A stretch of DNA of 64,000 bases from Escherichia coli (lineage in GTDB: Bacteria > Pseudomonadota > Gammaproteobacteria > Enterobacterales > Enterobacteriaceae). The translations under genes were made by a program, and so were the position numbers. Position 1 is the first letter of the stretch. Each line of letters opens with the position of its first letter. Where the stretch lies: the NCBI RefSeq assembly GCF_029227855.1, contig NZ_CP074356.1; one strand, written 5' to 3'. Shown here piece after piece: positions 21,825 through 26,402 of this stretch. A model generated the notes under the pieces. The model was not told the DNA's origin, made no database searches, and saw nothing but the letters and a program-made list of their open reading frames with translations.

Positions 21825-22230
21825 CTGTATGCGATATCATCTGAAAGTGATGAGTTCCTGTATGCAGGATATTTACAATCGTAAAAACTACACTATGATA
21901 CCCATAGTGTCAGTTTGTATAAAAATCCTGTTCACGCTGAAGAAAACATTGAGATGCAATTTAATGTTGGTAAACATACCAGCCCCAAAAGATTTTATTC
22001 AATCTGTTTTTATATGAAGATATTTCAAGTGAATATTAAGAGTATATAATATTATTATTGCACGCAGCTATTATAATATAACAGATTAGTTTAATGATTT
22101 GTTTTTTGTGAGTTAAACACATGGTTTTATAGTTGTGATGCAATGAGATTTTCCTTATTGTTGAACTGGCGAATATTGATTTTCCACCTATACTTACCTG
22201 GTGTAACCCCAGTGATATCAGGTGGATAAT

Positions 22231-22944
22231 ATGCCATACATATGTTCTGTCATTTTGGTGTTGAACTCGTTTGGTGTCCGAATTGGTAAAGAAGATATTT
22301 TGTTTAAAAAAGGAAGTGCTGTCCTCATCGAATACAATTTAAAAGATCTTTTTTCGTCAAATACAGATCATCTAATGATCGTAGATGTTGAGGAGAAAAC
22401 AGTTAATGATTTCTTTAAAAACTACACACTCTCACCTTTTTCTGTAAGAAGGTTTTATCCGGCATACTTGATAGTAGAATGTGAAGGTTTTTCTTTGTTA
22501 AAGAACTTGGTTGCATGCTTGAATTGTGATAGCAAAACCGTGGATGTGGTTAGAAATCAAATATCACTTGCATGTCTTGCTGTCTTATCTTCAGAGAAAA
22601 TAGTGCAAAGTTTTTTGTTCGGAAGTCTTAATAGCTTAGGTTGTAAAGTTAAGGCTATTATTCACTCGGATATCTCAGCGTCATGGAGACTTTGTGATAT
22701 ATCTTCAAGATTATATATGAGCGAGAGTTTGTTAAAAAGAAAATTAAAAGACGAAGGGGTATCGTTTAGTAGATTAATTCTTGAAGAACGAATGATGATG
22801 GCGCAAAGATTATTAATTTACAGTAACCATACTGTCGGCAAGGTGGCGGGAATATGCGGGTATGACAATGCATCATATTTTGTAAGTGTTTTTAGAAGAT
22901 ATTTTGGTGTGCCTCCGCACCAATATTTATCAAGATTTTCTTAG
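22231..22944 (+). CDS. AraC-family transcriptional regulator (AppY-like)
   Basis: C-terminal AraC HTH (GKVAGICGYDNASYFVSVFRRYFGVPPHQY); N-terminal half resembles remembered AppY; AT-rich. Confidence 0.8.
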   Translation: MPYICSVILVLNSFGVRIGKEDILFKKGSAVLIEYNLKDLFSSNTDHLMIVDVEEKTVNDFFKNYTLSPFSVRRFYPAYLIVECEGFSLLKNLVACLNCDSKTVDVVRNQISLACLAVLSSEKIVQSFLFGSLNSLGCKVKAIIHSDISASWRLCDISSRLYMSESLLKRKLKDEGVSFSRLILEERMMMAQRLLIYSNHTVGKVAGICGYDNASYFVSVFRRYFGVPPHQYLSRFS

Positions 22945-23355: not shown

Positions 23356-23700
23356 ATGACTCAAGTATACGAACTGGTTGTGAAAGGAGTCCGTAATTTT
23401 GAGAATAAAGTTGCGGTAACTTTAGCCTTACAGGACAAAGAACGCTTTGACGGTGAGATTTTTGACCTTGATATCACTATGGATCGTGTTGAAGGTGCTG
23501 CACTGGAGTTTTATGAGGCAGCAGCCAGAAGGAGAATCAGACAGGTGTTCTTGGATGTTGCTGCCGGGTTATGTGAAGGGGATGAGCAGTCGCCGGAAAA
23601 GCGCCCCATAATTTTAGAGGCGCAGAATGTGTGGATAACCTACAAAGGAAAGCTACCAGGAAGAATTACTGGTTATCTGAAGACTCCGCCGGAATGTTAA
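23356..23700 (+). CDS. YdfR-like lysis-cassette protein (DUF1327)
   Basis: 114-aa ORF MTQVYELVVKGVRNFENKVAVTLALQDKERFDGEIFDLD... resembles remembered YdfR. Confidence 0.7.
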   Translation: MTQVYELVVKGVRNFENKVAVTLALQDKERFDGEIFDLDITMDRVEGAALEFYEAAARRRIRQVFLDVAAGLCEGDEQSPEKRPIILEAQNVWITYKGKLPGRITGYLKTPPEC

Positions 23701-23938
23701 TTTTAACAGCATATTTCTCTTCCAGTAATGCCACCAGCCACTTGAAGGAATTTTGTTGTTCCTGGGACCATTTGGGGCTGTGTGATTCAAGCTGGAGCGA
23801 TGCCAGTGTTGGTTGCATTTGTTCCCTGGGAATTGACAATGCCAGATATGAAAATGCGACAGTAAGGGCATTAACATCATCCCGAAGCCTGGAAATGCAG
23901 TCGAGCAACTCCTGAAGAGAAATGGTGTTATTGTCCAT
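23666..23938 (-). CDS. hypothetical protein encoded antisense within lysis cassette
   Basis: 90-aa minus-strand ORF with good RBS (gagga, 6-nt spacer); acidic, protein-like composition. Confidence 0.45.
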   Translation of the reverse strand: MDNNTISLQELLDCISRLRDDVNALTVAFSYLALSIPREQMQPTLASLQLESHSPKWSQEQQNSFKWLVALLEEKYAVKINIPAESSDNQ

Positions 23939-25340: not shown

Positions 25341-25657
25341 AAACCGGCCAAGGATAATCCGCTGAAGATTCGCCGGGGCTAGAGAGAGCCAAAGCTTTAA
25401 TTGACACCATTACTCATAGCAAGGCAATGCATCGTTTTTATGAGGTCAATAGATGCCTGATTTATTTCTGTGCTCCGTATCGTCGCTGTATTCCTTCGTT
25501 AACCATGAGTGTAGTCCGACGGGGAGCACGAGTGTATGGGAATAATAAAAAAAGATACACACCTGGGTTTACCGCTTTTATGCTTCGCGGGTTTGCTCTT
25601 CATGCAGCTAGTCCGGTACAGAGGTGTATGAAACCGGACTGCTGATTTAATTAATTC

Positions 25658-26062
25658 CTATATTAATGGTCTGTTATTTTCAACATCTTCCATGTACAAA
25701 AGATCGTGATCAAACGAATAGTAAAACCTTATGTTTTTATCTATATCTGTAATCCAGCGATAAACACCTGCTTTTGCTAAAGTGAGACGATATTGATGAA
25801 ATGTAGATTTACCTGATATAAGATTTCTGGCTGCTTCTTTAATTAATTCTGGTTTCTTTGATGTGCTAACTTTCACAAGTCCTCTACTGCCTCGAACTAA
25901 TAAAATATTATCATCATGAGTAATTAGTCTTATATTATCAGTAGCCAGATAATAAATATAATGCGCAATATTATGGCGTTTTAATTCGGAGTAAAACCAT
26001 GGGAAGTATAAATTACTTCTAACGTGTTCGAATATCTCTTGAAAAATATCTGCCTGCTCCAT
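25658..26062 (-). CDS. hypothetical AT-rich moron protein
   Basis: 134-aa minus-strand ORF (MEQADIFQEIFEHVRSNLYFPWFYSELKRHNIAHYIYYL...) between spanins and terminase; start uncertain. Confidence 0.45.
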   Translation of the reverse strand: MEQADIFQEIFEHVRSNLYFPWFYSELKRHNIAHYIYYLATDNIRLITHDDNILLVRGSRGLVKVSTSKKPELIKEAARNLISGKSTFHQYRLTLAKAGVYRWITDIDKNIRFYYSFDHDLLYMEDVENNRPLI

Positions 26063-26402
26063 CAGGAAATATCCTCTTGTCACTGCTACTTCTTACCATG
26101 AGCTTAGATAGTTTGCATGATTTGTTCTCTCACATCAATCTGATCCGACCTCATTGAGGTGGGCGTTGTGAATACCTGATAAGAAATGTGGGTCCTCCCA
26201 ATGGGGGAGGCTGGCACGGGGCGGGAGCGTCGCGGAAAAAGGCTAGTTTTTGCATTTCCATGGCGGCGGCAGCATGTTTGGTAATTTATTGATAATTAAA
26301 AGTTATTTCCCTTTTCACCTGTACAATATTTTTTTCTTCCTGTCATTAGACCAGTTTGCAATTAATTGAAATATATAAATAAACCTGATTTTCACCTGCC
26401 AG

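Follow-up and report, generated by a model that had tools for sequence, protein, structure and literature searches.

What is the small, AT-rich gene that lies against the direction of its neighbors between the lysis and packaging genes of this prophage, and what keeps it there? The window (the whole stretch of DNA analyzed, 64,000 nucleotides of the Escherichia coli contig NZ_CP074356.1) carries a lambdoid prophage here, with the gene order Q, morons, holin, lysozyme, spanin, DUF1398 gene, DUF1441 small terminase, large terminase, and portal; a 1151-bp region of it is 100% identical in five complete genomes. An earlier note, made from the letters alone, had singled out an AT-rich minus-strand ORF at 25658–26083 as an opposite-strand moron between spanin and terminase, and could not place its family. 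The ORF listing confirms the ORF, and its composition and setting support the moron reading. The gene falls between the spanin gene (end 25340) and the small terminase gene (start 26403), on the strand opposite to both, and its GC content is 31.6% (GC3 23%), against 51% for Rz, 50% for the lysozyme gene, 51% for terS, and 54% for terL. Both a composition far from the 50%–54% of the flanks and a strand opposite to the flanking operon are as expected of a moron.

The ORF spans 141 amino acids if read from its GTG. Its first in-frame ATG, at 26062, gives 134, the length the note had estimated, and has a Shine-Dalgarno sequence, AAGAGGA (26072–26078), 9 nt on its 5′ side. The N-termini of all homologues in an 18-sequence alignment align to this ATG, and the RefSeq entry for the identical protein (WP_025238988.1, annotated as a DUF1398 family protein) has its start called at the same position. 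On the strength of the homologue N-termini, the RefSeq call, and the Shine-Dalgarno sequence, the ATG at 26062 is likely the start of the gene. The peptide that the note had quoted, FPWFYSELKRHNIAHYIYYL, is present in the translation.

25658..26062, minus strand: DUF1398/YdfO-like gene of the YcgX lineage, 134 aa plus stop (ORF list, Pfam, RefSeq)
26063..26083, minus strand: in-frame extension to GTG upstream of the ATG, containing the Shine-Dalgarno sequence; probably 5′ UTR and not coding

The HMM and structure searches that the note had proposed supply the family it lacked, with a full-length DUF1398 match and YdfO as a relative of solved structure. Pfam PF07166 (DUF1398) matches the protein at 139.5 bits (cut-off 22; E 6.8e-41), window residues 8–126 covering profile positions 1–119 of 119. 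By sequence, PDB 2HH8 matches at E 3.5e-40, and a profile search of the PDB has this entry as its sole match; it is E. coli YdfO, a soluble protein solved by solution NMR. PHROG 413, a family labeled "head protein," also matches (E 2.8e-47). Invariant in the 18-sequence alignment are L27, G99, and W103 together with hydrophobic and aromatic core motifs; these three residues and the motifs YY(I/V)(Y/H)(Y/F)(L/V)(A/S)T and AG(V/I)(F/Y)(K/R)W are all found in the window protein. The ORF almost certainly belongs to the DUF1398/YdfO family, of which it is an ordinary member, a divergent and rare allele in the canonical slot. The family is small: across 1.84 billion representatives, an all-against-all HMM search yielded 112 matches, many of them fragments. 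Searches with the window protein gave nothing in NCBIfam, no family at E ≤ 1 among the PADLOC-DB defense models (which cover systems described up to 2023), and nothing at E ≤ 0.001 in a BFVD fold search; the fold neighbors other than YdfO were just weak MHC-like analogies.

The fold of the window protein is predicted with a pLDDT of 92 and is shared with YdfO. In the model, two helix-helix-three-strand (alpha-alpha-beta3) repeats build a two-layer platform, and an hhalign comparison of the N-terminal with the C-terminal half finds a local match (probability 69%, E 4e-5) with 43 columns in register. The two repeats of the model and the match between the half profiles together indicate that the predicted DUF1398 protein is an internal tandem duplication that forms a pseudo-dimeric platform. 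A conserved set of residues of catalytic type was sought in the 18-sequence alignment, and none was found. The protein has no Cys, hence no lipobox, and its highest 19-residue Kyte-Doolittle mean is 0.36, from which it follows that it has neither signal peptide nor membrane helix, as the note had said. Its pI is 8.0. We take it to be a soluble, cytoplasmic protein.

The place of the gene in the prophage can be fixed closely. Two phages, Tritos and cdtI, have genome records that begin exactly at window position 26219, at what is probably the cosN cohesive end; the cohesive end of lambda is GGGCGGCGACCT. With the cohesive end at 26219–26230, the DUF1398 gene becomes the last gene of the linear phage map.

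26219..26230, plus strand: probable cosN cohesive end GGGCGGGAGCGT, at the start of the Tritos and cdtI records
25341..25657, no strand assigned: conserved non-coding spacer of about 318 bp from the spanin gene to the DUF1398 gene
25605..25644, minus strand: hairpin with inner stem AGUCCGGU / ACCGGACU, beginning 14 nt past the stop codon

The lambda homologue, lambdap78 (J02459 47066–47452, minus strand; 50% identity), adjoins bor and lies just before cos. Judged by sequence and gene order, the counterpart of the window ORF is lambdap78, not bor. The position that the note had called bor-equivalent is thus right as to the gap between modules, which is the one that holds bor, and wrong as to the counterpart, which is bor's neighbor. 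No bor was detected in the window by tblastn with Bor (nothing better than E 0.46), and blastn against the lambda right end returned Rz and 116 nt of the DUF1398 ORF only. A bor remnant in the ~318-bp gap was considered and rejected, tblastn with Bor, lambda p79, and another lambda right-end ORF having found nothing there.

The slot is shared widely. Phage Tritos, PhiR42_1, and the E. coli 55989 prophage carry a DUF1398 gene in the same place, with differing cargo between Rz and it. The distribution in other prophages, a check that the note had also suggested, was followed in IMG/VR among the best 80 loci (two of the window allele, 43 of the lambda/YbcV type, and 35 of ycgX at the edges of predicted prophage regions). 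A spanin gene (Rz), oppositely oriented, comes directly after the DUF1398 gene in 44 of 45 phage-borne copies, the remaining copy (L101) having too little flank to score. In every copy with enough sequence upstream, a terminase gene is found there, likewise in the opposite orientation. One record met along the way, GenBank MW057783.1 (L107; "Campylobacter phage CJLB-4," 48,361 bp, classified as Lambdavirus), has the order R-Rz-bor-ybcV-ybcW at lambda-like coordinates and looks like lambda DNA, not a Campylobacter phage.

The spacer at 25341–25657 recurs after Rz, at ~80% identity, in many E. coli prophages with a different DUF1398 allele. The recombination joint seems to fall at the ORF itself, as the spacer is common to prophages with other alleles. 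A 72-aa plus-strand ORF at 25427–25645 was rejected as coding; its frame is broken by single-base indels relative to the E. coli 55989 copy. Rfam searches of spacer and leader gave one sub-threshold chance match only, and folding for structured RNA gave z-scores of only -0.8 and -1.0. The minimum-free-energy and the centroid fold both contain the hairpin at 25605–25644, and E. coli 55989 shares its inner stem. The hairpin lacks a U-tract on the minus strand and was not picked up by a terminator consensus scan; it may end or stabilize the transcript.

Elsewhere in the same prophage, the interval from the antiterminator Q region to the holin gene contains another AT-rich ORF, at 22222–22944 on the plus strand (~31%–35% GC, 240 aa), which RefSeq annotates as a helix-turn-helix domain protein. 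In the matching RefSeq record, lipocalin-family and YbgA-family genes lie upstream of it, and the three together look like a second moron cluster. Inside the lysis cassette, a minus-strand ORF at 23666–23938 (90 aa, "hypothetical protein" in RefSeq) sits between the lysozyme gene and a YdfR-family gene, and overlaps the end of the latter.

The nearest relatives of the window protein (61%–66% amino acid and ~71% nucleotide identity) stand alone on the chromosome and are not prophage copies: ycgX next to bluR, one that follows yedE/yedF in other Escherichia, and one beside icd in Citrobacter. Of 5426 complete E. coli genomes, 4994 have DNA like ycgX (~71% identity with a coverage of 80% or more), so that chromosomal ycgX is near-core in the species; the window allele is rare, in eight of the 5426. 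No conserved partner gene was seen near distant or chromosomal homologues in the neighborhoods of the copies examined, and distant full-length members are singletons. From a 98%-identical allele, the window allele differs by five synonymous and two non-synonymous codons (dN/dS 0.097); against the 61%–64% relatives, dN/dS is 0.09–0.19, and it is 0.08–0.37 in every unsaturated family pair, prophage and chromosomal copies alike. These ratios indicate that the gene is under purifying selection and functional.

A second kind of conservation lies outside the coding sequence. Alignment of the regions upstream of seven DUF1398 copies from unrelated contexts brings out a block from ~90 to ~47 nt before the ATG.

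26109..26152, minus strand: conserved 44-nt block GAGGTCGGATCAGATTGATG...TGCAAACTA, from the alignment upstream of DUF1398 copies
26148..26160, no strand assigned: ACCTCATTGAGGT, a perfect palindrome of 13 bp at the block's upstream edge, read from the sequence

The block is found upstream of the lambda, Tritos, E. coli 55989, ycgX, yedF-side, and Citrobacter copies (six unrelated contexts). Between lineages it is 68%–95% identical, against 57%–61% for the ORFs and just 40%–49% for ORF third positions. The window copy is the most diverged (68%–77% identical to the other lineages), with its PdhR-like palindrome degraded; the block occurs once in the window, against 0.06 occurrences expected by chance. 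Copies also lie at L002 2986–3019, L012 4932–4965, L015 4932–4965, L008 7932–7965, and L020 3303–3336. Upstream of distant DUF1398 homologues the block is absent. In a scan of one genome per species with a strict pattern, it was found only in Escherichia and Citrobacter, which is a lower bound, since the pattern does not match the diverged copy in the window itself. For nine leaders, RNAalifold returned -1.15 kcal/mol with no consensus structure and no covariation, and this lack of an RNA structure signal suggests that the block is read at the DNA level.

Within the block is a candidate promoter (-35 TTGATG at 26133–26138, a 17-nt spacer, and a weak -10 CAAACT at 26110–26115); a consensus promoter scan flagged no minus-strand promoter upstream of the ORF. 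In position, the block overlaps the PdhR box published for ybcV and ydfO (PMC7660256). In the window, ACCTCATTGAGGT stands in place of the palindrome GGTCAGACC of the lambda/YbcV type, which is degraded here, and is possibly a regulator site. We suggest that the block acts as a portable promoter/operator, with the operator at its upstream edge.

In published work on the paralogues, T4 MotB, which alters H-NS-dependent repression, raises ybcV/ybcW more than 1000-fold when overexpressed (PMC7827196); loss of hha and ydgT derepresses ycgX (PMC3686432); ionic-liquid shock increases ydfO 116-fold (PMC4077768); ybcVW are up 5 min after induction of a DNase toxin (bioRxiv 2024.12.20.629666); and ybcV falls 10-fold in a pdhR mutant (PMC7660256). 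The DUF1398 paralogues thus behave as silenced, inducible genes. Knock-down of lambdap78 leaves plating unchanged (PMC10695390). Overexpression of ybcV gave no sabinene-tolerance phenotype (PMC7181518) and altered glycogen content in a library screen, and a 2025 survey lists ycgX as "unclear" (PMC12356324). No experiment in the literature searched assigns a function to any DUF1398 protein. The report that YdfO overexpression confers oxidative-stress resistance (PMC4077768) was set aside as a mis-citation, the cited paper (PMC3105296) being about YfdO of prophage CPS-53, without mention of ydfO; literature matches to B. subtilis "ydfO" concern an unrelated gene. The small gene lambdap79, divergent from lambdap78 and next to cos, is essential by CRISPRi (PMC10695390) and non-essential in the earlier literature, and its CRISPRi essentiality may reflect a polar or cos-proximal effect. 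The labels "head protein" (PHROG 413) and "putative envelope protein" (a legacy of lambda, DE3, and HK629) have spread over many phage DUF1398 records.

On balance we favor the reading that the window gene is a functional moron cassette of the YcgX lineage at the right end of a lambdoid prophage, encoding a soluble, non-enzymatic binder that benefits the lysogen. That the gene is an independent cassette we consider likely. Its parts would be the ~44-nt promoter/operator block, the 134-codon ORF, and the downstream hairpin, although neither of its candidate signals (the -35/-10 in the block and the hairpin) passed a consensus scan. As the cassette is read against the late operon, its expression should not depend on late transcription in the lytic cycle. 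Being AT-rich, it would be kept silent until stress or a perturbed nucleoid turns it on, and the gene would be dispensable for lytic growth and kept through its benefit to the lysogen, a benefit for which the near-core standing of chromosomal ycgX speaks. More tentative, and on the doubtful side of even, is the mechanism of binding and host benefit: the platform protein may bind a partner, protein or small ligand, stoichiometrically and without catalysis. Promoter function, expression in the lysogen or under stress, and binding are all things we infer, and the preference for binding over catalysis would rest on the absence of conserved polar residues from the 18-sequence alignment.

Alternatively, a lysogen-expressed DUF1398 protein could act as a single-gene anti-phage or superinfection-exclusion factor that binds a component of an incoming phage or senses infection and so blocks its growth, as other lambdoid morons do. 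A moron position opposite to the late genes, the strong induction of ybcV/ybcW by T4 MotB, the induction of ybcVW within 5 min of DNase-toxin DNA damage, the presence of several diverged paralogues per genome, and a platform fold suited to protein binding would all agree with this. We nevertheless hold it unlikely, as no PADLOC defense model was matched, the neighbors of those distant and chromosomal copies that were examined are housekeeping, fimbrial, or regulatory genes and not defense islands, and the near-core, low-diversity ycgX is unlike fast-turnover defense genes; nor did the literature searched hold a phage-resistance phenotype, the loss of ydfO in one phage-resistant APEC isolate being a mere listing. 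It is quite unlikely, in our estimate, that the protein is instead a DNA-binding regulator that binds its own upstream block in autoregulation, or other targets, and so alters host or prophage transcription. The block accompanies the gene into every context, as it would in an autoregulated unit, there are palindromes at its upstream edge, and a pseudo-dimeric architecture would fit a palindromic site.

The invariant adjacency of phage-borne copies to cos and the terminase genes, like the "head protein" label of PHROG 413, might be taken to mean that the gene serves the lytic cycle as an accessory of cos and the packaging of DNA, or encodes part of the virion, and is kept next to cos as it works there. 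This seems improbable for a gene that is antisense to the late operon and outside the head module. Knock-down of lambdap78 has no effect on plating; chromosomal copies with no cos or terminase nearby, among them the near-core ycgX, are under equal purifying selection; and nothing in the material retrieved supports either the "head protein" or the "putative envelope protein" label. The second of these labels, carried by the lambda, DE3, and HK629 copies, and the gap shared with bor are what speak for an envelope or serum-resistance factor equivalent to Bor. That equivalence is effectively refuted by a protein with no similarity to Bor and with no signal peptide, lipobox, Cys, or membrane segment, whose relative YdfO was solved in solution. 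Finally, the note had allowed for a pseudogene or antisense artefact, and AT-rich DNA that is probably silenced would suit a non-functional relic. We give this next to no credence: the domain is full-length, with no frameshift or stop, the predicted fold is confident, the upstream block and ribosome-binding site are conserved, and selection is purifying, with dN/dS ~0.1 against the closest allele and similarly low values against the more distant relatives.

The formerly unplaced ORF is thereby settled as a DUF1398/YdfO moron, and not a Bor analogue, an envelope protein, or a head protein. The family itself is a remaining blank both in phage lambda and in the y-ome of E. coli K-12, which has three paralogues (ybcV, ydfO, and ycgX). 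Two modest points are new. The 44-nt block that travels with the gene is conserved more strongly than the ORF and offers studies of regulation a concrete starting point. The rare window allele, in turn, connects the canonical lambdoid Rz–cos slot with the lineage of the near-core chromosomal gene ycgX, which suggests a route by which ycgX was acquired. A far bolder extension, to which we allow only a small chance, is that DUF1398 might be an unrecognized class of portable lysogenic-conversion factors triggered by stress or infection: a pseudo-dimeric platform protein with its own promoter/operator would bind a host or phage target once nucleoid silencing lifts (T4 MotB and DNA damage are examples of what might lift it) and would thereby protect the lysogen, with the window allele as the phage-borne source lineage of ycgX.

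Set beside known systems, the window gene is closest to YcgX and its Escherichia and Citrobacter relatives, with which it shares a length of 134 aa, the C-terminus ...ENN(K/R)PLI, and the upstream block. Those genes are stand-alone and chromosomal (YcgX itself is beside bluR, near the e14 prophage), whereas the window copy is prophage-borne, in the Rz–cos slot, and rare. With lambdap78, YbcV of DLP12, and YdfO of Qin it has in common the Pfam family, the fold, the upstream block, and the position as last gene before cos on the opposite strand. These proteins, however, are 47%–50% identical to it and belong to another sublineage (136 aa, C-terminus ...QIFPR), and their usual extra neighbors, bor, ybcW/p79, or cspI-cspB-ynfN-gnsB, are absent from the window. 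The resemblance to MHC class I-like platforms (ULBP6, MICA/B, m152, and UL18) comes with 7%–11% identity, a differing order of secondary-structure elements, and coverage of about half the protein, and is an analogy only, from which no function should be read. Bor, the serum-resistance outer-membrane lipoprotein of lambda, is likewise a moron in the same gap, directed against the late operon, but it is unrelated in sequence, and the signal peptide and lipobox Cys belong to Bor alone; in lambda, bor and the DUF1398 gene are adjacent, not alternatives.
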